The notes beneath the pieces were generated by a model that saw nothing but the letters and a program-made list of their open reading frames with translations, made no database searches and had not been told where the DNA came from. A DNA stretch of 62,827 nucleotides, counting the filler, from Nemertoderma westbladi (Eukaryota; Animalia; Xenacoelomorpha): NCBI GenBank assembly GCA_032718475.1. It is 3 parts of 3 records of this genome, joined end to end, with 100 filler letters (N's around TTAATTAATTAA, not from the genome) between each part and the next. Parts side by side here need not be neighbours in the genome. Positions count along the whole stretch, not along the records: positions 1 to 26,199 come from JAUCBJ010002420.1; 2 more parts are not named here. The stretch is one strand, 5' to 3'. Numbering within the stretch: the stretch's first letter is position 1; each line of letters starts with the position of its first letter. Shown here one piece after another: positions 1 through 44,824 of this stretch. A program made the position numbers and the translations under genes.

Positions 1-20
1 CAGACGATAACCCAGCGGAC

Positions 21-2727: not shown

Positions 2728-5277
2728 ATGGCGAGTAAGTTGATCAGAAAGAGAAAGGCGGAGTCAGGAGGAAAGGAGATACAGGTGGATTTCACCGAGA
2801 GGCATCCGGAAGAGAAGACGAGAGGATACTACGAGAGGTTGGAAAGGGGTCACGCGGCGCGAGCGCTGCAGGATCACTTCAGGGAGATGCACGAACAGCG
2901 GCTGGTCGGGACCTACGGGACGCCGTCGCTGGACAACGCGATCTTCCAACACTTCCACTACGTGGTGAAAGGGGACGAGGCGAAGTTCGGGATTCCGAAG
3001 TACCCGAGGGAATCACCGAGGTAGGACTGGAAGAGATTCATAGAGTCCGTCAACAGAGGAGGATATATGATCCTAGACGACGAGGGAACCGTGGAAGACG
3101 AGGCGGGTTCGAGACGAGGAACGGCGGGGTCGGCCAGGACCATACTCCTACATTTGGCCGCGCCAAATGGGGACATCTTCTTATTCGACCTAGGGACGTA
3201 TGGGAAGAAGGACGGGCCGAAATTAAACCGGTTACCGAAAACGGTACAAGTCTTAGTAAGAGAGAAGTCGACGACGAAAGTGGGATCGGCGATTCGCGAG
3301 GATGCGGAGAGAATCATCAGTCCGGACGCCACCAACCTCCTGGATATGCAGAAGGTCTTTATGGCTATGATGGCACCGGATGGGTTCGGGGTAGTCGAAA
3401 ACACAGGCCAATGCGGGGCGGTGGCAATGGGCCAATTATTGGGGCTCGTATGCCACAAACCGATGGACTGGGGGAAGTTTAGGGAAGAATAAGGAGCAGA
3501 ACTAGCGAACTCGCTAAAGTGGGGAGCGAGACCGGGAAAGCAGGAGGTATATCAGTTCCGCAGGGGAGCGATAAAGGTATATCAGAAGCGATATATCCTG
3601 CAGGAGGACTGGATGATGATAAGTTTGCTTAACTTATTCATGACCGTGGTTATCGAGAGGGAACCAGGGGCATTTCTGTTATCGGGATCACCCCTAAGCT
3701 ACAGGAGAGCCTTTAAGACGGCCTTTGACGGTCTGGTAGACCACCCGGGGCTGAAGGGCGAGTCGGTGTACTACAACAGCCGGCATCTGGTAGACGGGGA
3801 GACAGATACACCGTATCAGAGATGGGAGCAGCTAGAGACGGATAGACGAGAAGCAAAGCGACTGGAAGAAGTCGCTAGACGGGAGAGGATAGAAGCAGAG
3901 GAGAGGGAAGAGGAGGCCAGGACACAGAGTTACGGCTTCGAGGAACAGGCAGGCCTAGACAAACTTCATTGGACTTCATCAGGGAGTTCGGGGGAGTCTC
4001 TAGGGCGAGAATTGGGATGGACGGTGGGATCGCCGAAACAGTCGACGTCGGGGTTGCAAACGATGCCCATACCAGCGGGCGCCGAGGGCGACCAACCGCC
4101 AAGGAAGTTAAGGGAGCTAGAGGGATGGAGAGCTACGGGGGAGAGCCAAGGCGGGAAGGGACATAGTGGATCCATCGGGATACTGGGATTGGAGACACTA
4201 CCAGAAGAGGAGGACGACGACGACGAGTTCGGAGAGATGCCGCCCATCGAGAGGATAGGCCACTCGGACACGGACTGGGTTGGCGGAAGGGTGGTGACGG
4301 CCAGTGGGGCGAGGGCCTTCTGGAACAGATCCGGCAAGCGGACCTGGGTGCACGAGGAGCCGGCGATGGATTTCGCGGGGAGCACCATCAGGTTGGGCGA
4401 GCAACCGGGGACGGCACCACGGATAGTATTCGGGGAGACGATGCCCGAGAGGGGCGGAGAGATCGACGTAGATAGAGAGACCAACGTAGAGAAGTTCGCC
4501 TACCAGCGACTCCACAGACCGCGGAGATCGCTTGGGACGAAAGACGAGGTGGGACGGGAGACATTGGTACTCGGCTGCGACTACTGTGGGAGACAGACCC
4601 ATCGGGAAAGCAGCTGCCTATACCGGTTCCAAAAGGGAACCTTTTGTCTCTACTGCAGAGAACCAAGCCACAGGATGAGGGCGTGTCCACGGTTGCATAA
4701 CCGATGTCCAAAGTGCCACTTTCGGGGACACTACGGACGCGAGTGCGACTGGATGAACGACGAGGAGAAGTTCACAAGATTCGAGGAGTGGGCCGACGTC
4801 GGGGCCATGACGCGCCAGCGCATGAAAGCCCAGGAGTTCAAGTGGGGTTTCTTCCTTATCAATCAGGAGACTCACATGGAAATCATAAAGCGGAGGCTAC
4901 CGTTTACCTACCAAGAGGTAGCAACGGCGGCGTCGTACGCTGGAGTGATGAACACGCAAAGGTATTTGGACAGGTGGACGCCAGAGAACCGAAGGGAGTT
5001 TAGGGATTTCTTGGCGGAGCACGTACCAAAGGCAATGAAAATGATCCTATGGGACGCCACCAGAGGGAGACAACCGGGCCACTCTGAGGGGCCACCGGCG
5101 AAGCGATATCGGGCACTAATAACACCAGCGCCCAAGGAGCCAACGACCGGGATCAGCAAGGAAGTGGCGGCGAAGGTCCGAAAGCAGAAAGCGGACGATG
5201 CCAGAGGAACGGTGATAACCAAGAAACGACCCAGGGAAGAGGACGCCAGGGGGAACTATCCCCAGAGGAACACATAG
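2728..5277 (+). pseudogene. Element 1 extra ORF (env position): DEDDy-like 3'-5' exonuclease domain plus three CCHC zinc knuckles, with two in-frame stops
   Basis: ORFs 2728-3024, 3067-3492 and 3613-5277 share one frame, broken only by TAG (3022) and TAA (3490). Motifs: ILDDEG (ExoI, 3076-3084), LPKTVQVLV...KVGSAIRED (ExoII), LLDMQ, QKRYILQED (ExoIII-like, 3592). CX2CX4HX4C occurs three times at 4576-4746. Confidence 0.75.
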
Positions 5278-6007
5278 GTTCCCAGAGCCGAGGGAGAGAG
5301 ACTGAGACTTGGACGTGGTGCGCCTGGAAGGCACCGCGTGGGACGTACGAACTATTAAATACAAATTTAATTAATGCAAATAATCATATAAGTGCAATTT
5401 GTATGTACGTATGTAGTAATTAGTAATCTACGAATATATAAGCTCGAAGTAAGTACTATAGTCATACAACCTTTCTCAATTAGCTACTGGGACTGGGGGA
5501 TAACTGACTATGGCACTATGGACGAGACACCAGACAATTTCACACTTCTTGAGTGCGACGGCACAAGAGGGGGGGGGGGGGGGGGGGGAGATTCGTCAGA
5601 AGGGATGAGGTAGTCAGAGTAGGGTTGAGGGACAGAGTAGTTAGTGCGAAGTGCGGAGAGAGTGCGGGCGCAATTCTAGTGTGGGGGTGGGGGGGGGGAG
5701 AATAAGAGGCTGAGTGAGTGACGAGGAGGTCCGAGTATATGAGAGAGCTAGGGTGAGAGTGAAGAAGAGATAGGGCGGAAGTGTTGGGGAAACAAAGGTT
5801 GCGTGAGAGGTGAGCGCGATCGGCCCGACATGAGACGCCAGGCACACAGGGTAGCGTTATCATACCCATAGGGGGCGGCCTGGAAAGCCGACTCCGAGAG
5901 AAAAGAATTCCACCCCACACCCGATACTAGATCGGGATCCAGCGGGATTGTAGCGCACTTTGAGGTGGATGCTATCTTCTCACCGGGAAGATAGCATGGG
6001 GGGGGAG

Positions 6008-6546
6008 TGTTAGCTTATTCAATCCCGCTAACCCAAACCCTAAAGTAAGCCAATAAGCAATATTGGGGGCCACGAGATTGGGTAACCCAATCTCGCGTCA
6101 CCCCAACAAAGTGGGAAGGAGAAACAGACAATGAGGGTCAGGGGCCAAACCCCTAACAAAGAGAGAATAGGTGGAGTGAACGGGAACACTCCAAAGGGCA
6201 CCAACAAGGGTATCAACCAATCAGAGGGGGGAAAGGCATCAGCTAGGTACAGTAACAAGGCCAACCCGTGCAATATAACCAGTTGGCAGTAATCATCTCA
6301 TTCAGTTATCTCAGTGTTATTGGTGTTACAGTAGCAATAGTTTAGCTAGGGAAGTACCGGGACTTCAATTACCGTCTCCCGCCTTCCATATACAACAATA
6401 TATTACCAGCCATTATCTATATCTATATTATATATCCCGAGTATTATATACGACGAACAACGCAAACTCTTTTATCTTTCACACATGGCGGGGACGCGTG
6501 AACTGACAAACCGGATAAACCGGGATCCTTCCTGGATCCCGTCACA
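6008..6546 (+). repeat. LTR (539 bp, TG...CA) of BEL/Pao element 1
   Basis: Preceded by a PPT, starts TGTTAG, ends GTCACA, and aligns along its whole length with 7289-7833. Confidence 0.92.
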
Positions 6547-7833: not shown

Positions 7834-10239
7834 CATATTCCATTATAGTTTTTAATTAGTTCAAGAGATTTGCTTTAATAAATGTGTTTTTAATTGTTCT
7901 AAATGTAATTAAGTTACAATGCATTCCATCACTCTATACTTCCAGTCTCATCATTCCTTGGCATTCTTGATATTGCCTATTTGATGGGAAACACGTTCGT
8001 GGGGCCATCGCGCAGGACGAGGCTCAGTTATCAGATACATATTAAAATTGATGCTCGTACAACACATGTAATAAAATTTAAGAAATTCCACCAAAAAATA
8101 ATTTATTTTACTTTAATTGCCTGGAAAAAAGTAAAATCAATGCAATACTATGGGTTACTTTTTTCTCTACAGAAAAAATAGTCATTTTTTCCCGATTTTA
8201 GGGTATATTCGAGCGAAAGAGTAACAATTTAAAAATAAAATTTCATAAAAATTTAAACCGTACTGTGTTTGGTTATCAACCTCGTACAGTTTGTAACTCC
8301 GAGCGCTACCTGCACACCAGCAGCACAGTATTAAAGGCCTGCACCACCACCCAGTTGAGTTACAGAAGTTGTTTGGTGGTCTAAAATTTGGTTGCCTAAA
8401 AACTAGGAGAACTTTAATGAATATTTTGTTTCTGTTTAGTTTCTATTGGAGCTTAGGATCCAGTGGATCTCATCTGGATCGCCCCGACAGACCACATCGA
8501 CATTGTCGGATATACCGTCCGTATTGTCTGACAGTCGGACGGGAGCAGGCTCTACCTGCAGAGTACGGGTTCCAGGTTGCCGTGGTTACTGGGGGTCTTA
8601 CGGTGGATTCGGTACAGTTGTGTCAGTACAACCCGGTTAGTTCGGCTAATTATATTTCAATAAAACGTATTTTATATTTCTTTCATTCTACTAGTAAGGT
8701 TATTGTTCGCGCTTTTAGACCTTTAGCAGTTTAACCCGCCAATTTTAGGTGTCTTCTAGTTTATAAATCGACTTTAGCCTATAAAACTGTTTAGTACACA
8801 TAAAGTAACATTAGCCGAAACCAGTCTATGCGCGACCATTCACCCACTGTTAAGGGAGACTGGATTCGGATGCTTTGATCTTATTGCGGTGCAGACCTAC
8901 CGTATTATTCGATTGATCGTTACTATATAATCTCTGACAAATATTATTTACTTTCGGGAAATATTAACAGTTACTTTAGGACGCGGCGCTCTAAGTATGT
9001 AAACAGAGTTATGACTTACACTAAACACAACGGGATGGCTAATGATTTTCGTTTATAGCGCATTCTTTAGGAAATGCTTTGTTATCTATCACACTCCTGC
9101 ACACTACCACACACTGCTGCACACTGATCTGCCGACCTTCACTAAATTTGATCATATATAAGGAGAATAGCATCTGACACATGTAGAGATTATGAAATAG
9201 CATTCAATTCACTGCAAAACCACTATAATGTAAGTCGCAGTTGCTACAGGTAACTGGTCCCTCTTACCTTCAGTATATCAAGAAGATTGGGGTTTTATGA
9301 TTATTTATCGATAATCTCCAAATATAACAACATATCAATCAACATATATAATAATTAATAACCGACAGTAAACAGAAGTAAAATAATGGTGCAGGTGCAA
9401 AGAACGTGACTGGAGTAGCAATTTGATAACAGTTATACGTTCCTATAATCAAGCCGTCTAATGTTTGGCTAAAGTCTGAAACTCAGAATAATTCCAAAGC
9501 CGATGTTCTGGGCTCAGGAAAAGGTAAACAAAGACCGTAATGCATTGCATGATTTCCCGTAGGCTTCTGTACAAGATAAAATGAAAATCGCTCTGATTGG
9601 TCGAGTGAGCTGAACAAAGAGAGTTAAGAAAGCTCCACATCGACATCAAATCAGCTGATAGATTTCGTCATATGAAACTACACTGTATTAAGAGTATTTT
9701 GGCGCATTGCGGCATAAAATGGCTTGTTATGTCCGCATAGTACACATACAGAAAAAATGGCTTTTTATGTCCGCTAAAACACCTACACAGTACTTTGCGG
9801 GAAAAAATGACTGGTTATATCCGCAAAAGCTTTTACACCGCTCCCAGAAAATGGGATTTAATTCTATAAAATATAAAAAATCACAGTTTCTAAAATATAA
9901 AAATACTCTAAACAGTTAGTCTTTCTTGCGCGGACGGCGTTTACGCAGTTTTTTGAGGCTAGCAAGAGTCCTTTTCTCTTTGGGGCAAGCCACTTTACTA
10001 GGAGGACTATAACTCCTGGGTGAAGGGTGCAATACAATTGCATCGGAAGGTTTAGGATTACGGTCGGTGTATCCACCGGTCGGGGTACCCGGTTGATCGA
10101 TATCAACCTCAGTGGAGCGAGGTCGAACGGCCTTTAGAGCGCGTTTCAGGACAGCAGCTCTTACTGGTCCCTGACGAGTCGTCTGAACAAGAGCGGTAGG
10201 TGGACCATGGGCAGTGAGAAACTTCCTCGGTTTAATGGT

Positions 10240-10540
10240 TATTGGGATCGGAAATAAATGAATACCAGCTGCATCAGTTTATTAATGGTCGACATACAGA
10301 ACAGCATATCAAACAATAATAAGAACCAACAGACCAACGAACACACCCACCACCTTACAGCACATCAGTACAGCAGTACAGTAGGTACCGGTAACGGTTA
10401 CTGTACCTACAGACCTAGAAGATAGGAAAGACTGAATACCGGAATACCAGAAGAGGACCGGTAGCTAAAAGACCAGTAGGTTGGATCTAACCACCACCAA
10501 GCCAGGGTCTACTAGAGCCCTAACAATACATAATCTAACA
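10240..10540 (-). repeat. Gypsy 3' LTR (301 bp)
   Basis: Direct repeat of 14822-15122, adjacent to the PPT. Confidence 0.96.
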
Positions 10541-10610
10541 TCTCCCCCAAGAACAATGTAGGAGACATTTGTAGTGAAAAAAAAAATCCAACCACCACCA
10601 ATAGGTCAGT

Positions 10611-13600
10611 TCATTGAACTCCGAATCTTGCTGGTTGCTTGTGAGTTCTCGAACTGCGCCTGGGAAGATCATCAGCGAACTGTACATGTTTTTGAGGCGT
10701 TATATCACGAAGAGAAGAGTCATCTGGGATGGAACGTAGATAACGACGATTTCTCCAATACACCCGACCATTGTCTAGTTCTATCCAGTAATCTCGTCTA
10801 GTACCACGGGAAAGGACGATACCAGATTTGTTCCATAGTTTGGAATGTGCACTCTGGATGCAAACTCGGGAACCAATAGGAATCGGGGTTAAGTCGTGAG
10901 CATGATCATTATAATATGATTCAGTTGCTGAAGACGTTGAAGGCCAAGGGATAGGGAATGAATCACCTGCCAGTGTGGACGAATGAGCTGGTATAGTGGA
11001 ACGGAGGGATCTACCGAACAACAGTTGAGCTGGAGACATACCATGTTCTTTAGGAGTATTTCTCCATTCCAGCAAACCACGAACAAAGCAAGTAGAGTTT
11101 AGATCTCCTTTGACATCTAACTTTTTTATCAATGATTTCATGGCCTTTACAGCCCCCTCTGCATGGCCATTAGACTGAGGATACTCAGGAGTAGAATACT
11201 CAGGGATGATATTCCATTCGGATAAGAAATCATGATAACGTGCTGAATTAAATTGTGTACCACCATCAGAACGAAGGCGTTTTGGAATACCGAAATCTTT
11301 GAACCATCCTCGAAGAGCTGAAATAACTTGAGAGCTGGAAGGATCGGCACGCCAAGAATGAACGCATGGCCACCCAGAATATCTATCGACATAAACCAGG
11401 TATGACCAGGTGCTGAAGTAGAAAAGATCAGCAGAGCAATCCTCCATTGGAAGACATGGATGAGGGTCGCTTTGGAGAGACTCTTTAGGTAAACTTGGTT
11501 GATAAAGTTGACACTGGGGACAAGAATTGACTATGTTTGTAATATCGCTATTGATACCAGGCCAGAATACAGTTTGCCTAGCTCTCCTCTTAGAACGTTC
11601 AATGCCCTGATGAGCATCATGAAGGTGCTTCAGGACATTCTTGCGGAGGGAAGATGGAATTACAATCCGGGAACCTAATAAAAGAAGATTATCTTCACAA
11701 GATAACTGATGTCGCACATTCCAGAATGGGCGTATGTGCACAGAACATTGTGTGGATGTTGAGGGAAATCCAGAAATAACAGCATCCACCAAAGCCATGT
11801 AAGAAATATCATCCTTTGCAGATGATCGGATAGACTCAATATATGAATCCTTGAGATGACTTGGAGCATCAGAGACAACAATTGAGGTAGACACGTGACG
11901 AATGACTGCGGAAACATGGTCATTGACATCTGTATCACAAAGAATATCCTCTGGAGTAGGATCCGAAACAGGGGCACGGGAAAGTGCGTCTGTAATCGAA
12001 TCGATATCGGAAGTGATATCGGAAGTGATATCGGAAGTGATATCAGAAGTGATATCAGAAGTGATATCGGAAATGATATCGGAAGTGATATCAGAAGTGA
12101 TATCGGAAGTGATATCGGAAATGATATCGGAAGTGATATCAGAAATGATATCGGAAGTGATATCAGAAGTGATATCAGAAGTGATATCGGAAGTGATATC
12201 AGAAGTGATATCGGAAGTGATATCGGAAGTGATATCGGAAATGATATCGGAAGTGATATCAGAAGTGATATCGGAAGTGATATCGGAAGTGATATCGGAA
12301 ATGATATCGGAAGTGATATCAGAAGTGATATCGGAAGTGATATCGGAAGTGATATCAGAAGTGATATCGGAAGTGATATCGGAAGTGATATCGGAAATGA
12401 TATCGGAAGTGATATCGGAAGTGATATCAGAAGTGATATCGGAAGTGATATCGGAAGTGATATCGGAAGGATGGACCCAATTAGTTGGTTCGTTATCCAG
12501 AACTGGACAAATAATACCTTGTTCAACCATTTTCTCTAAGCGAGCTTTAGCCCAGTCTCTAATGGCTAAAGGAAGTTGCCTGGCTGTATGAATAGCATAT
12601 GGTTGGGCATCATCTTTTAATGAAATGGTCATGGGTGGGCCATTCATTGGACGAAGTTTGTCATCTTGGTCAAAAACATCAGAATAAGCCTTTATGAGTT
12701 TCTGCTTAACAATATCCCATTCTGAAGGCGAAGGTTCATCAGAAAGATGGAAGTCAACCTTGAATGATGTTGTTGGAATTGAGTTTTTAATACCAATAGG
12801 TGACATATTAGAAGAATTAGAAGAAGCAACAGACTGAATTTCTGCCACTGGTTCTGGATATGAACTTGAAATAATTCCTAGGTTTTGACAAGTATACCAT
12901 GCCAAAAGAATTCCATTGACTTCTTCACAAATGCAGATAAGCTCATCAGTTGAATATTCACCATAGGAAATTGTAGTGTGGAGGAGACCAATGCATGAAA
13001 GAAGACTACCATTAGCAGCAGAAAGATCATCATGGTCTGGTGGAAGTAAATTTTCTTTGTCAATAGAAAGGGCCTGAAGAAAATCTAAGCCGGCAACAGT
13101 GGCCTCAGCACCAGTATCTGGAGTTGCTTTGAGAGAACCGAATAAATGTCCTGTTGCGATATGACAGAAGTTCAGAAATACTTTCGGAGCTTGTCGATTA
13201 TGGCTTCCAACCAAATTGAGGGTGATGCGGCTAATGGGTTTTGTCTTAGGTTTTGAAGATGAATTCGAATTATTTTGTTTAGACCGACAAACATTGGCAA
13301 AGTGGCCTTCCTTGCCACAATAAGAACAATCTTTGTTCCTTGCTGGACTGTCAGCGCGTTTATGGTCTGTTTTACCACAACCATAACAAACTATAGGGCC
13401 AGTAGTTGAAGAATTGTTTCTGGAATTGGATTTAGAAGAATTGTTGCGCCTGGAATTATAAGGTTTTTTGTTGTGAAAACGAGATTGTCGAGAAGCTTGG
13501 TTGATTGAAGGGTTTTTTAAATCCTGAACTCCAGCTTGCGCTGATTCCTCAGACCTACAAAGATTTACAGCATCTTCAAGCGAAGGAAATGGAGTCAATG

Positions 13601-14291
13601 CAAGAAGTTTAGATCTGGTGTCCTCGCAAGAAATACCAGACATAATTCGAGTAGTCAACCGCCGATCGAAACAATGACGACATAGATCAGCATCTCGAGC
13701 AAGATCTTTAATAGCAACCAGGTAGCTATCAAAATTTTCACTTTGACGTTGTTTCCTATTATCAAACTGAACACAATCAAGGGCTATATTCCGTTTACCA
13801 CGAAAATAACTTTGAATACAATCTATTAACACCTGAACTGTTAAAGGATTATCATGTGTGTCAGGAGGAATGTCAATAACTTGTTCCAGTGTAGAGCGCA
13901 TACCTATAGAAAGGTAACTCCTGAAAATACAGATTTGCCTATCCCTAGCCATTCTATCCATCTGAAATGCAGAATAATAATCCGCCCAAACCGACTTCCA
14001 AGTTTCAAATTTTGCTAAACTGAAATCCGGTTCTAAAGCAATTGGTGCTTTAATTTGAAGATTACGAGGGGTTGAGTCAGCCTGATGAACTACAGGTTGA
14101 TGTGGTTGACCAAGTAATTGTTGAAATTGATGGGCATTTTGGGCTTGGGATTGTGCTAAGGAATCAGCCAAATCGCGTTGTGATTTAACTAAAGCATGTA
14201 GAAGAGCTGAGGTGGGATCAGGATTACCACGACCAGCCAACTGTTCTCTTAAAACCTCCAGTTCGGTTTCGAGTTCAGCTTTAGTAGGCAT
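10611..14291 (-). CDS. Gag-protease-(SDIT)n-integrase polyprotein, 1226 aa, lacking RT and RNase H
   Basis: Gag (FDNRKQRQSENFDSYL), knuckles CYGCGKTDH and CSYCGKEGHFANVC, protease DTGA, pre-RT PTNWVHP. Then the repeat, the post-RNase H motif DALSRAP, HDAHQG...FWPGI...CPQC, and integrase ADLF / LRSDGGTQF / PQSNGHAE. No YxDD motif. Confidence 0.92.
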   Translation of the reverse strand: MPTKAELETELEVLREQLAGRGNPDPTSALLHALVKSQRDLADSLAQSQAQNAHQFQQLLGQPHQPVVHQADSTPRNLQIKAPIALEPDFSLAKFETWKSVWADYYSAFQMDRMARDRQICIFRSYLSIGMRSTLEQVIDIPPDTHDNPLTVQVLIDCIQSYFRGKRNIALDCVQFDNRKQRQSENFDSYLVAIKDLARDADLCRHCFDRRLTTRIMSGISCEDTRSKLLALTPFPSLEDAVNLCRSEESAQAGVQDLKNPSINQASRQSRFHNKKPYNSRRNNSSKSNSRNNSSTTGPIVCYGCGKTDHKRADSPARNKDCSYCGKEGHFANVCRSKQNNSNSSSKPKTKPISRITLNLVGSHNRQAPKVFLNFCHIATGHLFGSLKATPDTGAEATVAGLDFLQALSIDKENLLPPDHDDLSAANGSLLSCIGLLHTTISYGEYSTDELICICEEVNGILLAWYTCQNLGIISSSYPEPVAEIQSVASSNSSNMSPIGIKNSIPTTSFKVDFHLSDEPSPSEWDIVKQKLIKAYSDVFDQDDKLRPMNGPPMTISLKDDAQPYAIHTARQLPLAIRDWAKARLEKMVEQGIICPVLDNEPTNWVHPSDITSDITSDITSDITSDITSDIISDITSDITSDITSDITSDITSDITSDITSDIISDITSDITSDITSDITSDIISDITSDITSDITSDITSDITSDITSDITSDIISDITSDIISDITSDITSDITSDIISDITSDITSDITSDITSDITSDIDSITDALSRAPVSDPTPEDILCDTDVNDHVSAVIRHVSTSIVVSDAPSHLKDSYIESIRSSAKDDISYMALVDAVISGFPSTSTQCSVHIRPFWNVRHQLSCEDNLLLLGSRIVIPSSLRKNVLKHLHDAHQGIERSKRRARQTVFWPGINSDITNIVNSCPQCQLYQPSLPKESLQSDPHPCLPMEDCSADLFYFSTWSYLVYVDRYSGWPCVHSWRADPSSSQVISALRGWFKDFGIPKRLRSDGGTQFNSARYHDFLSEWNIIPEYSTPEYPQSNGHAEGAVKAMKSLIKKLDVKGDLNSTCFVRGLLEWRNTPKEHGMSPAQLLFGRSLRSTIPAHSSTLAGDSFPIPWPSTSSATESYYNDHAHDLTPIPIGSRVCIQSAHSKLWNKSGIVLSRGTRRDYWIELDNGRVYWRNRRYLRSIPDDSSLRDITPQKHVQFADDLPRRSSRTHKQPARFGVQ
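12002..12468 (-). repeat. 12-bp minisatellite, about 39 copies of TCYGATATCAYT, translated as SDIT/SDII
   Basis: Direct reading. Each unit contains the GATATC palindrome, and only two positions vary. Confidence 0.97.
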
Positions 14292-14821
14292 ATCTGACTG
14301 TTGAATAGTAGAGAAATTTCAGGAAATTAAATATCCGAAAAAATTTGCAAAATCCGAAAAGAAAAAATTTTGCAAAAATGTGCAAAACTTTTGCACGCAA
14401 ATCAGCCAAAATCTGTAGTTATTGAATACTGGCAGACTGGAATACCGCCTGACTGCTGAATGTGAATAGGTACCGGTAGTTTCTAATTAGGCTAGCGGGC
14501 GTGGCTGCCTACCCCTCACGGCCCCCGGACAGTGCAAGGTCCTCAGCGCCGATGTACCGTCGTCGCTGTGTTTTTCGCCAACGATGTAGCTACACAACGA
14601 CAACGATAACCGCGAGCCACTCCACTGTCCGTCCCAAGGGCTTAGTTTAGAAGAGTACTGGAGTAGGTACACCACCGGAAGTATAGGTAGGTAGCTAGGC
14701 CTAGATCAGAATCAGTAGAGGCGACCGGTAGAATAATATTGAATTATCTGACCTGCTGAATGCGCTGGAATGTCCACCATTTGAATAGGGTTGTAGGAAC
14801 ATCAAGTACATCACTGCGCCA

Positions 14822-15122
14822 TATTGGGATCGGAAATAAATGAATACCAGCTGCATCAGTTTATTAATGGTCGACATACAGAACAGCATATCAAACAATA
14901 ATAAGAACCAACAGACCAACGAACACACCCACCACCTTACAGCACATCAGTACAGCAGTACAGTAGGTACCGGTAACGGTTACTGTACCTACAGACCTAG
15001 AAGATAGGAAAGACTGAATACCGGAATACCAGAAGAGGACCGGTAGCTAAAAGACCAGTAGGTTGGATCTAACCACCACCAAGCCAGGGTCTACTAGAGC
15101 CCTAACAATACATAATCTAACA
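14822..15122 (-). repeat. Gypsy 5' LTR (301 bp)
   Basis: Direct repeat of 10240-10540, followed by the PBS. Confidence 0.96.
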
Positions 15123-18100
15123 ATGGTTCTTTCCAACTCGCGTTCTCGGCTCGATATTCGTAGGGCCGTCTATGCACTTCCTGTAACTCTGGATAAGAGT
15201 TGATGAACAAGTCGCCATATTCCGGATCTTGACGAATGAAGTTGATCAAGTTATAGGAATTAAGATCGTTAGGATTAATGTTCCTGAGATATTTACGAAC
15301 AAATTTGGTTGAAATACATTCGCCAACACGCTTCATTAGTTCGTAACTCGGTGTGCGTGATTTTTGTTCAACAGACGCGAATAGGTAAGGATGGAATGCA
15401 TAAACTCCTTCGTAGGCGCATCCAGGGTAATAGCGATGGCGTGACTCACAATGTAAATCCGCGTTCGCTTCCCAAGCTCGGATGTAGCGTAGGGTAATCA
15501 TTTCATCTACGCTTTCCAGATCGCGGTTAAAAGGGCAATCAAAACTGGCATGTCCTTTAAGTTGACAATGATGGCATTGAGTCATAAATTGGGGGCAGAC
15601 TGCGAAAATGTGCAAGTTATTGAGTCTGCAATACGCACAATAGATCTCCATCGCCGGTTGTTCATGGAAATAGGAGCAGGGTACGTCTGAGTCCATGGGT
15701 GTAAGATGGTCTCTCGATGCGCATAATCGGCAACGTTTTCGAGAAACATAGTTGGCATGCCGATAATCGTATGCGGTGAGACACTGTGGACCTTGATACC
15801 ATTCCAAGACGTAGTCGTTGTCGCTGCTCCGGGGCGCGGTAGGTTGAATCGCCTCAGATTCTAAGCATATTGGTTCGTCTTCCAATTGCATAGCTGAGGT
15901 AGGTGTGACTGTTTCCTCAAGCGAACCCACTGTCTGAACTTCCACGATAGAATAGCCCGTGGGAATTCGAGGTCTTTGTATAACAGAGGAATGTAAGTTC
16001 TGTATACAAACATCCTTGAAAATGGCGAATCCAGCGCTGTCTAACTTCTCAGTAGCTGAGTCTCTTAGGCTGAGCTTGGTCAGAGCGCGGTCCTTGAACT
16101 GACTATCAACGTTACGGAACGGAGTCAGAAAGCGCCTGAAACATTCGAAGCGGATGAATTTATTGTGTTCATCTAGCTTGGTGAGTTTGGTTCCAAGTAT
16201 TAAGGGATGGGCGCGTATAGTATGACTGCACACATCGGCTAGCCAATACGGCAAGTGCGGCGTTTTCAAAGATCGTGTATATAGCTAAGGAGGGACGAAG
16301 GGGAACACTCATGAAGCTATACACGACACCAGGTGCAGTCAATGGTCCATCGAAGTATAATCGAGAATAATGATCTCCATATACTTGTTGATAGTTGATA
16401 GGATTTCCGACCTTGAAATTCCATCCGTATTCTTGAAAGGCAAGATGTCCGATGGAGGTTCGTTGTACTTTAGTAATGCTGCTGGGTGTATTGGCATACA
16501 TAGTTCGGAAGAAACCTCGGCCTTCTGCCCAGGGAGCAATCAGCTGAGTATCTACGAAAGGATATGGGATATTCTCCATGTTCTGAAAGTCGTTTTGGAG
16601 ATCTCCATAAACAGCTGAGCCGATTTTAAGGATTCTTTCGTTAAACAACATCTCGAGCACGGGCTGGGGTAACATCGATCCATCGATACCCATGGCCGGT
16701 TTCGCTCGGTGTCAGTGACGTAACGCTGCGCGAGTTCGAATTGTCCATGTCGGAGTTTCTTTTGTATCTTAGTGAGAGTCTCAAAGGAATAATCGATCAC
16801 GTCGGAACACACTCGAGTAAACACATGGGTAGAACCAGCTAGTCCTCGTATGTGTATCATGCGCGTAGTTCCCAGTTCTCCGACCGGAACGCTACCTTCG
16901 TTATTGTAAGTGACAACTCCATACATTTCGATAACGTTAAGAGTTTCGTTCCACTCTTTAGTGGCGTTCTCTAGGGTCATCCCCACCGGATGCCACAAGT
17001 TGGCGCATTCGCTAGCGCTAGGGAGATCCCTATACTTCAGATACTGTGTAGTATACGTCTCCACATCTCCATATCTTTGTATTCTCTCTTTTTCGAATAA
17101 TACGCCGAGATTCCAATGGACTAATCGAGTTTTAATAAATCCATCGAGATTATACGGAGGTGTTGTATCCTTCTCTATTCTAGAAACATTGTATAGTTTT
17201 CTGAATGAATTTACTTTCACTAACTGATCCAGATGTTTCTGCAATTGTTCGAGTTCGACAAGGTCGAGAGGATTTATTAGCGGTAGAAACCTTAGATTAT
17301 GCGTCGGGTCTTCAGGTTTTACCATATAATATTGAGTTAGATTGACGTAATAAGGGTGGTCTTTGATCCCATAAAACGAGTTCGGTAAAGGTCTAGCGCG
17401 TATGTTGACCTTGTGTACCATACGACGGACAAGATCCGCTTGATTGTCCGGAGGTTCAACGAGTATACCGTCGACACGAGCGGCCTCGATTGGAGGACGC
17501 TGTAACATAGGAGCGTCAGGGATAAGATCTCGGGATCTTAGGTTGATATCAACCGGTTGGGGTTGTACCGTCGCGAAGAGTTTGTCTCCGAAATGGGGAA
17601 CCATCGAGGGATGAATGATGGTTTTGGAATAGAGATCAGTCATAAGGATTTGAGCTTCGGGTTGGGCTAAAGCTGCTTCTTCTCTCTCATCCATTTCGAT
17701 GTGTTTCTCCTCGAGCTGATTTTCCTCCGCTTGTCGTTGTAAGCGTTCATCTAAAAACTCTTGTAGAGAATAGGTTCATCCAAGTTCGATGTCTTCCTCC
17801 GAGGTTTTGGATTTCTCGATCGAACTGTGGCAAGGCAAACTCCTTCACCGATTGGACTTGTTGCTGCAATTTACGTTTCTCTAAACAATCGTACGTTCCT
17901 TTTCCGATCTTCTGCCGAATAGCATCTAATGCGTTTCTTATAACGCGCTCCTCGACTTCGGTGACGGGTTGTATCGGGGTTAAACCGGGACAATTGTAAG
18001 GGTTGAACGGCGATATTAAATGTCCGCATCCCAATCCGGCTAGGTAGGATGGGCGAATATCTAGAGAGCCCACTACCGGAGTGCCACTGATTAATTGTTT

Positions 18101-18463
18101 GGGTAACACTAAATCTTTGAACAGTGAGTATAGTTCGGGAGGATCCGTGATACTATTAGGATCAAGAGTTTGAGGTCTCACTGGGGAATGAGGAGGTCTG
18201 TCCGAGTATTCCGGAACTCTGATCATGGGTTTATTTAAAGATCGTTTGAGGCGAGCGATCGTAGGTGATACATCAAACAAATTTCGCTCGAAACTCCCGT
18301 AAGTATAGCGAGTAAAACTGTGTTTAGCGCAACGTCTCCGCGGATGTTTATGTCTTTCCGTTTGTTGGTTGGGTCTAGGGCATTCATCACAATAATACCA
18401 AAGACGCACGTCCTGTAGAGGAAACGCGGGTGATCGTTCTCCAGTTTTACAATATTCCTCCAT
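15123..18463 (-). pseudogene. Element 2 extra ORF: N-terminal Cys/His region, DEDDy-like exonuclease domain and three zinc knuckles; frameshifted and cut by the Gypsy insertion (tail resumes at about 10234-9916)
   Basis: Overlapping fragments 18463-17747, 17694-16552, 16693-16169 and 16269-15123. Motifs TYNNEGS, LPQPVLEML...LKIGSAVYGD, FVDTQ, AIYTIFEN, then CRLC..H..C, CAYC..H..C and CHHCQLKGHASFDC. Homologous to 2728-5277. Confidence 0.7.
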
Positions 18464-18469
18464 CTGTTC

Positions 18470-21400
18470 GAAGCCAAAGCGTCGTCTCCAGAAATGTGTA
18501 GTACAGACAGATCTATCACGGGTTTAAATAACTTCGATTTACTCGTCCGGGTTTTAGGTTTGACTTTCTCCGTTCCCTTGGCTTGTCTAATCTCAGCCGT
18601 GGTGAGATGAGGGGGCCATTCATCCTCTTCTTTACTTAGGAAGTCGGGTCCACCTAACCAGTCTGGAGTGTCTACCAGTTCTTGAGGAGTTGCTCCTCTG
18701 GAGGCGATGTCAGCTGGATTAATCGTCCCAGGGCAATGTCTCCATTGATCTATCTTCGTGCGACTAAGTATAATGGCTACTCTGTTGGTAACGAAGACGC
18801 TGAACTGACAGACTTCATTGGCTATATACTCCAACACGAGTAAAGCATCGGTCCAATAGACAGTTTTCTCCAGAGGATAGTCGATCTGTTCTGTTACATT
18901 CCGGCCGATGGCTGTAGCGTATAGAGCCGCTTTTAACTCCGCTCAAGGAACTTTCAGCTTGTTGTTTATCAAGGCCTTAGAGGTAACCAAGGCGACCTTA
19001 ATTCCATCTGGAGTTTCAACCCTCAAGTAGGCTACTATACCTATTCCCATGTTGCTGGCGTCTCCAAACACATGGAGTTGATAGGAATACGTGGGGAGAA
19101 TGTGACCAAAATATGAACGGGAAATAATAAAGTTCTCGATGGAAGGTAGAGAATCTTCCCATTTCATCCACTTCTTTAGCAGTTCTCCCTTAAGTGGATC
19201 GTCCCATGAGTGGTTTTCAAGCCACATTTGTTGTACTAAACTCTGAGCAACCAATATAATGGGGCTAATAAATCCCAATGGATCGAAATAAGTGCTCAGG
19301 ATACTTAGACCAATCCGTTTGGTGCAAACTGGATTATCTCGCTGTTTTAGTTGGAAAAACAGGATATCTCTCTCCGTGTCCCATTTCAAACCAAGCGTCT
19401 TAGTTTCTGGAAGATCGTCCTTGATAAGGTCTAGATCTTTAGTTCCTCGGTCTTCTACCAGGATCGATTCCAGAAATTCCTGGGAGTTACTTGTGAATTT
19501 AGTTAATCTAAATCCACCTCTTTTCAAGCACTCTACCGTTCCCTTGGCGACATCAATGGCTTCTTCCACCGATGGGAGGGACTTTAAATTGTCGTCCATG
19601 TATATATCCCTTTTGATGTTGTCGATAACCGCTTTAGAGAAGGCGTCCCGATTGTCTTCAGCAGTGGTATGCACTACTGAGCAGGCGTTTGAGGGGCTCG
19701 AGATGATCCCAAAAGCCTGTATGGTCATCCAGTACTCCACTGGTTTTTGGTTGAGGTCTCGTTCAGGCCACCACAGAAATCGTAGTCTGTCGCGATCCCT
19801 ATCCAGCGCTTTAACTTGTAAGAACATGCCTTCTATATCCGAAGCAAAAGCAATCGAATATTGTCGTAATCTTAAGAGTATTCCCAACAAGGATTGGAGT
19901 AAGTTGGGTCCCGGCAACAACTCGGAGTTAAGGGATTGGCCCATGTAGAGGGCGGAGCTGTCAAATACTACCCGGACTTCGTTGGGTTTACCGGGTTTGG
20001 GAACGTAATGGTGTGTTAAATAGTATGTTCTCTCGGTTATGGGTGTTTCTTCTGGTACTCGCTCCGCATATCCCTTGTCAATGAATTTCTTCAGCTGGGT
20101 CCTGTACATCTCCTTAGCTGAAGCATTTGCCGTAAGGCGTCGATGTAGTTGCGCGATTCTCTTCTCCGCCAAAGGTCGGTTATTTATAAAATTGGGTTCT
20201 CTCCGTCGGAAAGGCAGACCAATCTCATACCTACCTTGATCTTTAAGAAAACGTGTAGTCGTTTCCTGTATCTGCTTGGCTCTTTCCTCTTCTACCGATA
20301 GGGCCTTATCGTAGGAATTGGGCTCTACAGCCTCTTGAGTGAAGAATCGTACGGCGTGTTCATCGCGAGTCTTCGCGTTTTAACAATCTATCACTTCATT
20401 CAGTTCGTCGTTGTAATCGACTTGTCCCGCTGGATGGATGAGGTGACACAGGTTCACTTGGTTTTGCCAAGTTTCATTTTCCGTAAGGAGGTCGATGGTA
20501 TTCTCCTCGTCGAATGGTTGATGAATATCGTCATTATCTGAGGAGTATGGCGTTCCCTCAGGTGTGTCGTCTCCCTTACTGATTTCCTCTTCCCATTCAC
20601 TCACCTGGTGGACTTGATCTTTAGGTAGCCTTTCCATGAGTGTCCTACGGGAAGGTCCAGTAAAGTACCAACCTACTCTAGTTCTTCCCGCATAGGTTTG
20701 CAGTGGTTGCGGTTGAGCAGGCCGTTTCTCTAATGTCTCAAGCGCCTCATGCACATTTTGGCCGATGAGTATTTGTACCCCTGGATAGTCGGTGTTGAAT
20801 CTAGGTATCTCATGCTGCTGGGTGAAATTGTCTTCATCCCAGTTATAAGGTTCCACTTGGCTGGTAGCGAAGTTCTTTATCACTACCATCTTCACTGACC
20901 TTATACTGTGTTCTCCTAGTTCATCCTGGGGGGTGGATAACGCGCCTACATAGTAGTCTGTAGCTACTGTAGATTTCCAAACCTGCATAATTCCTGAAAG
21001 GTTCAACTTAGTTCGGAACTTGGGTTGTCCAGCAAAGATATCTTCGGCTAGTTCTTTGTCGATGAATGTTCCTGTGCTGCCGGAGTCAAGGAGGGCGTTC
21101 ACTATATAGCTCCTTTTTAACCCGTGGACTCTCAACTGCACTACGGGAAATTCTCGGATTCCTACGTTGGAAGTTGGCGCTTTCCAAGATGGTTGTCGGT
21201 CAGGAATAGTTAAGGGGAGCTCACTATCAGTTTCAGTCTCATACGTAAGTGCTCGATACAGTGCAGTGTTTATTAGATAACAGGATTCGTTTTCGTCGGA
21301 GAATTCATCTGTGTAGAATCCTTCCATCTCCGAACTGTGGTCAGTGTCGTTCACATCACTGAATTGGACATGTAGTTTGGACTCACTTACCTGACTCGGG

Positions 21401-24400
21401 TTGTTTCTTTCGAATTCGGTGTGCAACAAGATATGATGTTTCGCGCCGCACTTCGCACACCTTGCGTCGGAGTAACAGGTTCGCCATTGGTGTCCTTGTC
21501 TGAGACAATTATAACACAATTGCTTATCCCACATGACTACGCGTCTATCTTTTAGGGATTTCTTTAAGAATTCATCACACACACTTAAACGGTGGGGCCC
21601 GTCACACAACGCACATTTTGGTTTGATGTTACTTACTTTACCTTGGGTAGTGTTGTGCACACTTGTTCTCTCCTCGGGCTTTCTTCCCTGAATTCTCTTA
21701 GGAGACGTGGGAGGAGTTTTTGTTGTCTGTTCTCTCCTGTCACTGGTTCGAGACTTAAATTTACTTACATCCTTTGGTGTTTTGTTGACATAATAAGATC
21801 TTTCGGTGTCTTTTCCGTTGCTCTCCTCTTGAGAGGTTTGGCTTTCGCCGTCGTCTGTATAACACACTGGTGTTACCTTTCTCCTAGAAACGGGTTTTTC
21901 ACTTACCTTATTTTCCGGTGTCTTCTCTCGGGACTGCTTTAGGAGCTGTAATCTTACCTATCCATTTAAGAATGACATGAGATCAGCCATGGTAGGTTCT
22001 CTTTGTTGCTGGTCCATCATATAGAGCACTTTCTTGTCCCAGCGAGTACCTACTCCACCCTTGGGCAAAGTAGAGGCTACGGCTCCAATAACCTTGGAAC
22101 TCTGATATTCATGAGACTTACCTAACCAATCTAGTTGTCTACAGATCTCCTGAATCTCATCGGAAAACTCTATAATCCCGATGCTAAGGAAATTTCGGGG
22201 TGCTACCAATTTTGCATACAAATACCTAGCTATGTTTGTCCTATTACCATACCTGATGTTTAGTGTTTCCCAAACTTGTCTTAATCCATCTGGATGTCCA
22301 ATAAACTTTAACGCCATTAACTTGGGAGGTCCTTCCAAACACTCGATGAGGAATCTAAGTTTCTCTCTGTTCGATAGTACAGAGTTCTGTATGTTATCTT
22401 TGTAATATTCATTAAAAGGTAACCATTTCATCTCATCTCCATTGAACTTGACGATCTCTCCCACTTTTACCGCTTGACGGGCTTCAGTTCTGGCCATTTG
22501 ACGCATAAAACTTTTTTGGGCCATCGTGTTATTTAATATCGAGTTATCGGTATATAAATTTCTCGGATCATGATCAGGTGTATATGGAATATCATTGTCA
22601 ACAGGTTTATAATTACCCTTAATAGGGTTTACTATAGGAGTTTCTACTTCACTAGCAGTATAGATGTGTGTAGGCTCCACACCTTGCGCATGAAATACTT
22701 CAGACCTAACAGGTTGACACATTGTTACATGGGGTGGTGGTATACCCCTTTGTGTATTTACCAATTTATCGCGTTCTAACGTGATACTCTGCTGCACTTC
22801 TTGCAACTCTAACCTACTTTCCCTTACTGTTCCCTTGAACTGTTGAACAGTCTCCTGCATCTGCCCGAGCAGGAGATCCATCCCCCGCCATCCCTCATCC
22901 ACCCACTCGACCGCCGAAGCAGGAGCCGCCAACATAGTAGCGGGTAGACGAGGGACGACGGGCGATAAATCTTTAATGTCTCGCTCGGCGTCCAGGACAT
23001 GAATTGTCTCAGGGACTGTTTTACTGGGCACAGGTAATTTAGTACTGTGCAAAGGGAATTTAGAGGTAGGTTCTGGGAGTACAGGTGTCTCTATCACCGA
23101 AGGGGTGGCTTCGAGAACAGGCCTAATTATTTCAGGCTCATCTACTATAGTAGGGAGTCTTTCTACTACAATAATTTGATCTGTGGGTTCTGTACCACCT
23201 AAGTCTGTGCTAGCTAGTTGCCTTCTCACAGCTGGGGGCAAATTAGGCAATTTCTGACGGTGGGGCGTTCTTCTACGCCTGCTGGAACGAGATCTATTTC
23301 CTCCGCCTTCGGGATCTGTTGTATCGCCTTCATCAGATGATGTAAACCCCTGTCTTTTTTATCTATGTAGTCTTGCTTCTCTTGAAGATTTTCCAACTCT
23401 CGTTGGGTGGTCTCTTCAGACGCCCTCCGTTCTATTTCAGCCACTGATACCTTTCTTTCCGCTTCTGCTGCTGCCACTGCCGCCTTTCTTTCCACTTCGG
23501 CCGCTTTTATTTCCGCTTCGGCCGCTTTTCTTTCCGCTTCTGCCTCTGCCGCTGCCGCTTTTCTTTCCACTTCGGCCGCTTTCCTTCCCGCTTCTGCCGC
23601 TGCCACTGCCGCTTTTCTTTCCACTTCGGCCGCTTTTCTTTCCGCTTCTGCCGCTGCCGCTGCTGCTGTCTTTCTGTCTTCTATATGTTTTTTCTTCACT
23701 TGTTCTTCCTGAACTCTAGCGATGCGGATTCTTTCATCAAATTTAGCTCGATCCGCTTCTAACCTTTCCGCATCTAACAAGTCTAGCACAAACTTGGCTC
23801 CCTCACTCTTAGGGTGAAGTCCAGCTACCTTCTCCTTAACTCTTTGTCACCTATAAATCGTTGATAGTCCAACAGATAGATGTCAATGGCGTCCTTCTTT
23901 GGAGGTTTCTCTGATGTCGCTTCGCTTTCAACTTGAGAAAAGGTAGCATCTGTTGATTCTCCGTGGGTTGAGCGTTCAGTTAGCTGAATTTTCCATTGGG
24001 TTGTTCCTTGGACTTTAAGACTCACCCGTTGGAACCAAGTCTTTACGGCAACTTGCAACGACGTGTCTTGGCTTCTCTTCGAGGCTTCCTCAAAGGCCGA
24101 TAGGATTAGTCTGATTCTTAGGATACGTTCTCGAACTTGATAAAGCAGCTCTCCCTGCTCTTGAGGTCCTTGGGGTTGTTGAAACAGTTGTTCCTCTAAT
24201 CGCTCCAAAGAGCTGAAGAATCTCTGTACATATCCTGCTGCCGACCTCTTCCACACAGCTGGATCTCTAGTGTCCCTTTCCACTCCCATCCTATATAAGT
24301 CCTCCCAGGTAGCTTCCGATAAATTAAACGGGAGTCCGGGTCCGGGGAAGTTCCATTGCGTCTCGACAATAGACTTCATTTCCTCCATTGTGTATCCCGC

Positions 24401-24853
24401 ATAACTATCCTTGGTCGATTGCTTACTTCTCGCCCAATCGATTTGTTGTTCTTCAACAGCAATCAATACTCTAGTGAGAACAGCTTCAGGAAGAACAAGA
24501 AGTGGATCCGAATAAACCGCCTTTGCCATCTCTGCTCCGATCTCGGGCAGCAACTCTACAGTATCTGTACTACTGGAGCTATCGGACCGCGGAGAAATAA
24601 GTTCTCGGCTCGGGTGTTGGTGGTGCTGCTGTTTAACAGCTGCCTCCTGGTCCCGCTTGACTTGAGCCCGCGTGCCTATAATAGACCTACGGTGCTTGAC
24701 TAGCCTAGGGTCTGATACTACAACTGGGAGAATAACCTTTCTTACAGTAGGAGGGGATTTGAACTTTGGTCTCAAACGTTCCGCACTCCTATCTAAATCA
24801 CAGACTGTTGTTTCTAAGAGACTATCTGACAGATTTTGCTTTGTGTCAGCCAT
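18470..24853 (-). pseudogene. Element 2 gag-pol (Gag, three Cys/His knuckles, aspartic protease, RT, RNase H); stops and frameshifts; no integrase
   Basis: KFNGDEMKWLPF...EKLRFL (Pao Gag), CALC/CYNC/CAKC knuckles, ALLDSGS, RVVFDSSA...SLNSELLPGPNL, DIEGMFLQV, YMDD, LHVFGDAS, WRHCPGTINPADIASRG. In-frame stops at 21958, 20380 and 18943; frameshifts near 23810 and 23240. Confidence 0.9.
23440..23670 (-). repeat. Imperfect in-frame repeat encoding AAE(A/V)ERK coiled-coil/charged helix in the element 2 Gag N-terminal region
   Basis: Repeated GCCGCTTTTCTTTCC[AG]CTTC units on the + strand, translated in ORF 23226-23789. Confidence 0.85.
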
Positions 24854-24988
24854 GTTTGTTTGTACAGTTGAATGCCTACTACTATAACTATAGTTAAAGC
24901 AAGTCTAGTAATTCAGTATCAACTATAAGCCTAGTAAGTAATTACCGATACCGTCACTCAGTGCAGCGTGATATATATACAATATATT

Positions 24989-25241
24989 AGAATACCGGTA
25001 TACACTTATAGTATATAAGTATTATTACGGACTTGGGTTCGTCACAGAATACCGGTATATAATTCCAGCATAAGTATATATAAATATATAATAAGCCTAC
25101 CGTGAATACCGGTATACAGCTTACACTTATAGTATATATAAGTATAATTATAGACTAGAATTAATTACAGAATACCGGTATATAATGTCAGCTTAAATTT
25201 ATATAAATAAATATAATAAGCCTATCGTAAATACCGGTATG
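24989..25241. repeat. About two copies of an imperfect ~120-bp repeat with AATACCGGTAT cores in the element 2 5' leader
   Basis: AATACCGGTAT recurs five times, alternating between two flanking contexts. Confidence 0.65.
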
Positions 25242-26199
25242 TCAATTATTTTATAATAACTGAATTTCTGAATTTTAGGGTTACTTTACGTTACTTTATT
25301 ACCGTTATTTAAGCAGTAGTCCAACTGATATTAAGACCTAATTGATGGATGACAGGCCTACTATTTTATAAATCGGTTTAAGTTGATTTATAATATATAT
25401 ACCCGTATAATGGGTTTTTGTCAATATTTGAAATAAATGTTATTATTTCTGGTAAGGAGTCACTACACAGAAGCTGTACGCTCTCAGTGGAGTGCTACTT
25501 ATTGGACACTAAAACAAATAATTCTAATTTACTAATTTACTTATTACTACAAATTACATACAATTACAGGGTGAGGTTACAATCTCTAAATAAACACAAA
25601 AATTACACGTACAAATTTTAGGGTAATTTTACAGGAAATCTACAAACCAGTCTAACAAGGAGTTAGAATTTCTGGTTATTACAAAGTGACAGGATACTAC
25701 GGTATTTGAAGATAATAAATCAGTAGTAAATATATTGCGTTGTCTAGGTAAGAAAATACCACCGTCTGACGACTTATAGTCTCTAGCTTTACAGCTCTAT
25801 AAGTACTACGTTATGTACCCGGAGTGTCCCACCTAGAAGTTAATTACCGCAGCCAACCATAGCTAACGTGCCTATTAACCACTTTACAACACAAATATAC
25901 TGCCTACAAACTAATTACCTTCGGAAAGCACTGTACACTAAACCCTAAATTAGGTACAAGTACTTATATAAAAAATAACCAGCAGTTAAATATACTTGTA
26001 CAGCCAAAAGAACCACGGTATCTGCTGGAGTGACTAGCGCATAAAATCACCAGTCTTTACCTACGCCTAACAGCCCTGATGTAGTACCGGGGTTAATTTA
26101 ACTATAACGGTATGTATAACAAGCACAATTACTGTAGGAATAAACTTGGGGTTGTGTATGTTGCAAATAATCGCATAAACTCTGAATAATAAATATTAC

Positions 26200-32985: not shown

Positions 32986-33078
32986 GTAAATAATTAACAT
33001 CAGATACCCCAGTCATAAAGTCCTAAAGTCATTTTTTACACTAAATTTAATGCAATAATCACTATTTTAAATCATTTT

Positions 33079-41421: not shown

Positions 41422-41588
41422 TAGGACTGACTGCTTTAGCAATTATACAAGACGAATTAGAATTAAAACTAATTAGAATTCCGTACTGTGTTTGTTTGTT
41501 TCAATACTGCTTTGTTGGCTTTGGCTACCTGCTACCAGCTGCTGTAAAGTGGAAATGCACCAATTATACGCTATCTGCGTAATAATAA

Positions 41589-44709: not shown

Positions 44710-44824
44710 GTGAGTTACTTTACTAGAATATTAATAAAATCAAATATTACGCGAAACCCCGAAATATAATTAATGTTGGGTTCAGTCGATTACTCCCAAA
44801 AATACTTAAAGTGTAACCTGGGCC

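Follow-up and report, generated by a model that had tools for sequence, protein, structure and literature searches.

Homologous accessory open reading frames behind pol in two BEL/Pao retrotransposons of Nemertoderma westbladi, predicted to encode a DEDDy-type exonuclease and a zinc module

Background

The closest described counterparts of the locus presented here are the open reading frames (ORFs) named ORF3 of the bdelloid rotifer elements Juno, Vesta and Athena, which passages of the corresponding papers describe as DEDDy-type (PMC5408684, PMC6431247, PMC5718144, PMC6338049). According to these passages, the Juno/Vesta long terminal repeat (LTR) elements and the Athena/Terminon elements likewise carry an extra ORF behind pol, in the position of env, which encodes an RNase D-like DEDDy exonuclease (PMC5408684, PMC6431247), is devoid of transmembrane segments and has a proposed function. 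Analysing a stretch of 62,827 nucleotides from the genome of the xenacoelomorph animal Nemertoderma westbladi (GCA_032718475.1; hereafter the window), we found two very distantly related BEL/Pao retrotransposons, named element 1 and element 2, which very probably both carry a homologous accessory ORF behind pol, predicted to encode a DEDDy-type 3'-5' exonuclease, a linker and a zinc module. Compared by description, the rotifer ORF3s reside in Juno/Vesta and in Penelope-like elements, whereas the carriers here are BEL/Pao elements; the rotifer catalytic set is reported to change from DEDD to DEED (PMC5408684), whereas the fourth acid is either D or E here; and the passages describing the rotifer ORF3s contain no multi-cysteine zinc module with FExxADxG..WG. 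DEDDy accessory ORFs being known in rotifer retroelements, their carriage by BEL/Pao elements and the unnamed protein family constitute the new part, and a literature search, with subscription journals, Repbase, figures and supplements outside its scope, found no exonuclease ORF in BEL/Pao.

Other systems share part of this arrangement. Dada DNA transposons are also mobile elements with a DEDDy exonuclease, but the consulted passages of PMC3706591 place it within the DDE transposase, with four canonical acids and a proposed role in processing the ends of cleaved DNA. Trypanosoma brucei RNase D (PDB 7c42 and related entries) associates, as here, a DEDDy exonuclease with a following CCHC zinc finger, and ranked first among the Atlas look-alikes, although its score of 0.86 is no more than a lead, all Atlas scores being below 0.9; it is however a cellular and compact protein, without long disordered linker and with a finger simpler than the module described here. 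Nibbler/Mut-7, EXD1, EXD2, the WRN exonuclease and Egalitarian have the same fold, several of them in small-RNA or RNA-localisation pathways, but they are host genes with 10-22% identity and the fold singles out no donor. Finally, the arenavirus and nidovirus ExoN are exonucleases that RNA-based parasites have captured and use to suppress immunity or to proofread, the arenavirus one being described as an immune suppressor in the part of 10.1101/2021.02.01.429129 considered here, although they are of DEDDh type and represent separate captures.

The family defined here, still unnamed, comprises members with intact YxxxD and YxxxE motifs together with natural loss variants, and is directly expressible and assayable. 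With it, the range of DEDDy accessory ORFs widens from rotifer elements to BEL/Pao, and a conserved zinc-module domain is added for which Pfam has no dedicated model. Suppressors of small-RNA silencing encoded by retrotransposons have been sought and are, to our knowledge, poorly documented in animals.

Results and discussion

Anatomy of the two elements

Element 1 lies on the plus strand, where positions 3..1742 encode the end of the ribonuclease H (RNase H) followed by a whole BEL/Pao integrase (H2C2, rve and DUF5641), its reverse transcriptase (RT) being located outside the window. The extra ORF (2728..5277, plus strand) spans 849 codons with in-frame stops at 3022 and 3490, and successively encodes the exonuclease (~3028-3650), a linker, a Cys/His module (4576-4746), a domain carrying FEEWAD and a basic tail. 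A TGT...ACA segment at 5949..6546 (plus strand) is the candidate 3' LTR, the 5' LTR falling outside the window; a related solo copy at 7235-7833 is 84% identical to it, both being about 600 bp long and ending in ACA. A G-rich, polypurine-like tract occurs directly past the integrase stop and is followed by 36-bp tandem repeats (1780-2230). Both are well upstream of the extra ORF, which might sit in an unusually long terminal region.

Element 2 has the opposite orientation (minus strand). Its gag region (20380..24904), interrupted by stops and frameshifts, encodes a DUF1759 domain (Pfam E-value (E) 2.4e-11) and three Cys/His knuckles, located within 20380-21957, then an aspartic protease. RT (YMDD at 19591-19602) and RNase H follow at 18505..20379 with a single in-frame stop, so that the order of protease, RT and Pao-type RNase H is the one expected for BEL/Pao. 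The Pfam matches were PF05380 (E 4.7e-28), a family given as RNase H in the consulted part of PMC3985635, and, both short of the cut-off, Asp_protease_2 (E 0.0019) and RVT_1 (E 0.017). The pol of element 2 also matches that of L003, a metagenomic BEL/Pao locus described below (blastp E 3e-46). This similarity to other BEL/Pao pol proteins stops shortly past NPADIASRG, after RNase H; no integrase was detected over 15123-25300 (tblastn at E 1 with two BEL/Pao integrases as queries) and the extra ORF is found directly downstream of RNase H. The copy of element 2 is an integrase-less BEL/Pao derivative and not a complete autonomous element.

The extra ORF of element 2 is preserved as four pieces and a tail, all on the minus strand. 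Piece A (17800..18463) opens with an ATG at 18463 and overlaps the open frame that ends pol; it gave no database, integrase or family-profile match, and its coding status is the least sure. Its beginning is rich in Cys and His. Piece B (16705..17772) contains a long N-terminal region and the ExoI motif (16888-16920), with Asn at the first acidic position, and piece C (16250..16699) extends from ExoII (KIGSAVYGD) to ExoIII (YTIFEN). Piece D (15151..16242) carries the linker, the Cys/His module, a predicted zinc module (15535-15732), and a downstream region with WEANAD. A Gypsy-type element is inserted at 15123, and beyond it the ORF resumes as a basic, low-complexity tail resembling that of element 1 (9916..10234, stop at 9916-9918). 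The original prediction, made from the sequence of the region 15123-18463, had put frameshifts in this ORF at about 17750, 16690, 16260 and 15130, the breaks being placed here near 17800, 16700, 16250 and 15150; it had missed the Gypsy insertion, the lack of integrase and the high copy number, and the tail at 10234-9916 lies outside its coordinates. A purine-rich tract followed by TGT (9837..9851, minus strand) is a candidate polypurine tract with the candidate start of the 3' LTR, and other copies of element 2 diverge from the window sequence at 9823. Within the window, neither a repeat pair flanking element 2 nor a 5' LTR matching this candidate was found. The runs of N around the TTAATTAATTAA spacer at ~26200 and ~48380 are assembly gaps, and the former may conceal the 5' end of element 2. 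Four breaks, a nested insertion, an ExoI lesion and the lack of an integrase mark the element 2 copy of the window as dead.

Neither extra ORF shows an env-like signal or transmembrane segment, the maximal 19-residue hydropathy reaching 1.3 in element 1 and 0.7-1.2 in pieces A-D of element 2. The interpretation as env was ruled out on this lack of a transmembrane-like segment.

Homology of the two ORFs outside the knuckles

The original prediction had paired the two ORFs through short motifs matched by eye, all of which are present in both elements where it placed them and in the same order. In element 2 (minus strand), they correspond to W-x9-GVVTYNNEGSV (16888-16953), MIHI..GSTHVF (16819-16860), LPQPV..KIGSAVYGD (16601-16672), VDTQ (16544-16555), VYSF..YTIFEN (16262-16324), the Cys/His clusters (15535-15732) and WEANAD (15457-15474). 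As it had also noticed, the two ORFs share no DNA-level similarity (best blastn match 11 bp, E 3.8). At the protein level, tblastn of element 1 against element 2 detected the knuckle region alone (E 2e-5). The knuckle alignment score was reached by none of 500 shuffles, whereas Smith-Waterman local alignments remained at chance both upstream (63 and 43 of 500 shuffles reaching the score) and downstream of the knuckles (37 and 33 of 500), and the exonuclease domains were identical at 38 of 242 aligned positions. Since pairwise similarity outside the knuckles was at chance, the motifs matched by eye required an outside test.

This test came from the protein family to which element 1 belongs. Searching its ORF against 1.84 billion cluster representatives (cut-off E 0.001) returned 81 matches, the best stretch of which was in the Cys/His region in every case; two of them (P0003 and P0046) were rejected as ordinary knuckle proteins. 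Most relatives share C-x2-C..H..CP-x-LH-x2-C-x2-C-x2-RGH, then FE-x2-AD-x-G..WG(F/Y). Twelve N-terminal domains, delimited by hand, served as a seed profile, which matched 32 of these proteins, its 12 seeds included, all 32 being among the 43 with at least 440 residues. Of these 32, the 26 matching over a span of at least 150 residues, unrelated database proteins, were used to build the final exonuclease profile, which contains no window sequence. When the window was searched as 1,435 six-frame fragments, this profile produced three matches, two in element 1 (3025-3489, E 1.8e-22; 3493-5274, E 0.0025) and one in element 2 (16711-16172, E 1.4e-19, piece C). As element 2 played no part in the discovery of the family, its match is an independent test. 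The middle and C-terminal part of its exonuclease scored 65 bits, compared with at most 3.5 for the 273 reported of 500 shuffles, and the part bearing ExoI alone matched weakly (E 0.026 as single target). Significance outside the knuckles, set beforehand as the test by which the prediction could fail, was hence lacking in the pairwise comparison and present with the family profile.

A second profile, covering the knuckles plus the downstream region in 65 segments, separated element 2 (E 5.6e-9) from the gag knuckle of the Gypsy element (0.019). When restricted to the region after the knuckles, it matched none of the 1,435 fragments (0.031 for element 2 as single target), and the proposed FEEWAD/WEANAD correspondence falls short of significance by itself. 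Both ORFs display the knuckle spacing and the domain order of the family. Judged by these profiles, the homology of the two ORFs extends beyond the knuckles and places them in one family with one architecture; it is real, though visible solely through profiles.

None of the 20 names looked up for relatives was informative, and the Pfam 3'-5' exonuclease model matched 2 of 47 relatives, both just under the cut-off. The window exonuclease pieces had no Pfam match at E 10, and a single-sequence PDB search returned nothing. Word-indexed protein searches gave no match for residues 60-340 of element 1 nor, among longer proteins, for piece B, and alignment A1 returned its query alone. Among the locus scans, the one with piece C as query confirmed none of 52 metagenome candidates, and negative outcomes were also obtained in viral contigs (0 of 44) and in prokaryote genomes (0 of 59). 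A single candidate out of 66 from viral contigs (L001) was discarded as a phage false positive.

Predicted fold and active site

The AlphaFold model of the element 1 exonuclease (predicted local distance difference test (pLDDT) 79, predicted template modelling score (pTM) 0.82) retrieved Egalitarian, EXD2, trypanosome RNase D, EXD1 and Nibbler as its top Foldseek matches. The model of a relative, P0017, consists of the exonuclease, a linker modelled with low confidence and a C-terminal module modelled with high confidence (pLDDT ~90). It aligned with Nibbler over 199 residues (Z 16.3, root-mean-square deviation 3.0), with WRN tied within 1 and RRP6 next, and giant-virus exonucleases were its matches in a viral structure library. 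The family profile itself matched EXD2 (E 1e-11) and WRN (E 2e-8). These models predict an RNase H-like exonuclease fold of the Nibbler/WRN/EXD/RNase D type and a C-terminal module folding as a separate domain; element 1 and P0017 were modelled, and element 2 is tied to the fold through the profile.

The catalytic set reads D, E, D, Y, E in element 1 and N, E, D, Y, E in the copy of element 2. The ExoI D-x-E and the ExoII D are thereby all present in element 1, their E and D in element 2, and both elements depart from the canonical YxxxD of ExoIII. The YxxxE reported for both elements in the original prediction is a family variant, as the final ExoIII acid of 26 relatives is D in 15, E in 7 and another residue in 4. 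Its suspicion that the ExoI Asn is a decay lesion also fits, the residue being private to the window copy and the codon reading otherwise in other copies (essentially all depth in three studies). The variant catalytic site it envisaged is consequently retained for ExoIII, as a variant occurring within the family, and abandoned for ExoI. Among 23 complete relatives, D, E, D and Y are conserved together with a closing D or E in 15, and a sixteenth has E at ExoII. Most pairs of relatives are ~16-27% identical, and the retention of acidic motifs at such low identity argues for catalysis in most lineages, while the loss of the exonuclease in some lineages suggests an accessory role.

Abundance, decay and selection in the element 2 family

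Element 2 is a member of a large and very abundant family. In run X1, 70,682 contigs map over 15.6 kb. The summed depth, which is not a copy number, is ~120,000-210,000 for the larger part of the extra ORF, 150,000-510,000 for pol and ~1,000 for the nested Gypsy element. Near 15150, 16250, 16700 and 17800, other copies differ in length by one base, the share of the depth concerned varying between a few percent and the whole, and the breaks of the window copy look like lesions, least surely near 17800.

Substitutions also differ between the window copy and the rest of the family. Differences found in a part of the family are silent in 17 of 20 cases, as opposed to 8 of 25 for those private to the window copy (Fisher p 0.0007), in a test on 45 listed rows from pieces A, B and D, none being listed in piece C, after removal of one row with less than 1% share in X1 and one in a break zone. 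These rows are the best-supported subset and not a random sample, so that the silent excess is an indication and not a ratio of nonsynonymous to synonymous rates (dN/dS), but it points to purifying selection on the extra ORF in the element 2 family.

Joints at 18752-20524, 15149-17696 and 10078-17694 were observed in other copies of element 2, some of them at high depth. The greater part of either RT or the extra ORF is thereby lost, internally deleted derivatives being common. As deleted forms are common in this family, an integrase-less derivative mobilised in trans is plausible. Around the join between RNase H and the extra ORF, no listed contig bridges 18475-18495 and none of the best 18 of 294 loose ends falls at the join. 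The summed X1 depth over 18460-18523 is 118,000 compared with 432,000 and 411,000 on its flanks, similar dips occurring elsewhere, and one X3 contig (depth 39) departs from the window sequence at 18498 for 182 letters. Run X5, which is labelled as another organism and might be RNA, contains low-depth contigs that are ~10-14% diverged over the extra ORF (window 15536-17673).

Relatives and their genomic context

The exonuclease tree, computed with the ExoIII column included and no cellular outgroup, has a star-like shape in which the ORFs of the two window elements do not group together. YxxxE is clustered on it, requiring 2 changes, a value as low being obtained in none of 500 shuffles. The proposal that the ORF is an old and selected component of one BEL/Pao sub-lineage is therefore upheld in part, by the homology and the signs of purifying selection, and is left unsupported by a tree that does not join the two ORFs.

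Five metagenome loci were recovered. In L003, a complete BEL/Pao frame covers RT, RNase H and integrase, with ~28% identity to each of the window elements, and a zinc-module ORF lies 1.7 kb past pol. L005 carries an exonuclease with a doubled module and has just 78 bases of upstream DNA; its ORF (79-2022, P0001) combines the doubled zinc module with a degenerate exonuclease. The long zinc-module ORFs of L002, L003, L004 and L006 have no detectable exonuclease, and no pol was seen in L002, L004 and L006, which have little or no upstream DNA. A BEL/Pao context is visible for one of the five outside loci; altogether, the zinc module is linked to BEL/Pao in three elements and the exonuclease in two.

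Possible functions of the accessory ORF

We favour, with slightly less than even confidence, the reading in which the accessory ORF is an RNA-tethered exoribonuclease directed against host silencing RNAs. The zinc module would hold the exonuclease on RNA; the exonuclease would be catalytically active with Glu at ExoIII and would prefer RNA; and its targets would be host small RNAs aimed at the element, trimmed or destroyed, and not the RNA or complementary DNA (cDNA) of the element itself. Such a host-facing role would be favoured because DEDDy ORFs recur in mechanistically unlike retroelements, as stated in the consulted part of PMC5408684, and the arenavirus ExoN described as an immune suppressor (10.1101/2021.02.01.429129) speaks for the same reading. 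The counter-silencing mechanism ranks first among the explanations considered but is tentative, and several points weigh against it. The first option named in PMC5408684 is that such an enzyme processes the RNA of the element itself. L003, the sole outside BEL/Pao contig, has the zinc module without detectable exonuclease, a stretch also missing from 11 of 43 long relatives, and one or more catalytic residues are missing in 7 of the 23 complete relatives. The best Foldseek match of element 1 is Egalitarian, an RNA adaptor, while the nearest folds include DNA exonucleases (WRN, Klenow), by which RNA preference is not settled, and the silent excess comes from the selected variant rows described above. 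Mature PIWI-interacting RNAs (piRNAs) are moreover often 3'-methylated, which blocks such enzymes.

Second, and somewhat unlikely in our opinion, the exonuclease might assist replication by acting, within the particle or next to it, on nucleic acids of the element itself. It would trim primers, the 3' ends of RNA or mismatched ends of cDNA ahead of strand transfer or integration. The same fold and catalytic evidence applies to this role, which the available passages present as the first one proposed for the rotifer ORF3s (PMC5408684), cleaved DNA ends being likewise the proposed target of the Dada transposase exonucleases (PMC3706591); the zinc knuckles could also dock the exonuclease onto element RNA. 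Against it, the ORF is separate from gag-pol, with no real fusion to pol or gag among 92 proteins, and the exonuclease domain is degenerate or lost in many relatives. It is also, as far as we know, absent from most described BEL/Pao elements.

Returning to the counter-silencing reading, its widest form combines two propositions: that an old and widespread BEL/Pao lineage encodes a Nibbler/Mut-7-like trimmer of small RNAs, countering silencing by piRNAs or small interfering RNAs through a putative and hitherto undescribed zinc RNA-binding domain, and that the very abundant element 2 family spreads without integrase, borrowing it in trans, with its nuclease under selection. Taken together, we hold these to be unlikely.

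It is more doubtful that the core role is RNA binding as in Egalitarian or EXD1, for export, germ-cell localisation or shielding, with optional catalysis. Egalitarian is indeed the top Foldseek match, the zinc module is retained where the exonuclease is degenerate or absent (L003) or is itself duplicated (P0001/L005), and the ExoIII of both window elements deviates from YxxxD. However, 16 of 23 complete relatives retain an acid at the four positions together with the Tyr, and all relatives were found via the zinc module, whose universality is partly built into the search. Independent captures from host exonucleases, or a host gene family picked up accidentally, would agree with the chance-level pairwise similarity outside the knuckles (38 of 242 positions identical), with a tree, lacking a cellular outgroup, that does not join the ORFs and with a context known for one of five outside loci, but are very improbable given that both ORFs match the family profile far better than the general Pfam model (no match at E 10), share knuckle spacing and domain order, show a silent-change excess in the element 2 family and belong with a module occupying the same position in three BEL/Pao elements ~28% identical in pol.

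Other features of the window

The Gypsy-type element nested within the extra ORF of element 2 (10240..15122, minus strand) has identical LTRs of 301 bp (10240-10540 and 14822-15122), a primer site TGGCGCAG and a 5-bp target duplication. An in-frame array of 12-bp tandem repeats occupies 11890-12590, where its RT and RNase H are expected, and one X3 contig has 1,114 different letters replacing 466 of the window in this region, so that the array may have arisen in assembly or be a replacement private to this copy. Overall, the window is animal-type DNA with many repeats and host genes, the latter forming very long uninterrupted frames (30780-47574 and 60000-62045) that resemble NOMO1 (in two parts), glycerate kinase and SF3A3 (in two parts), together with NAGLU.

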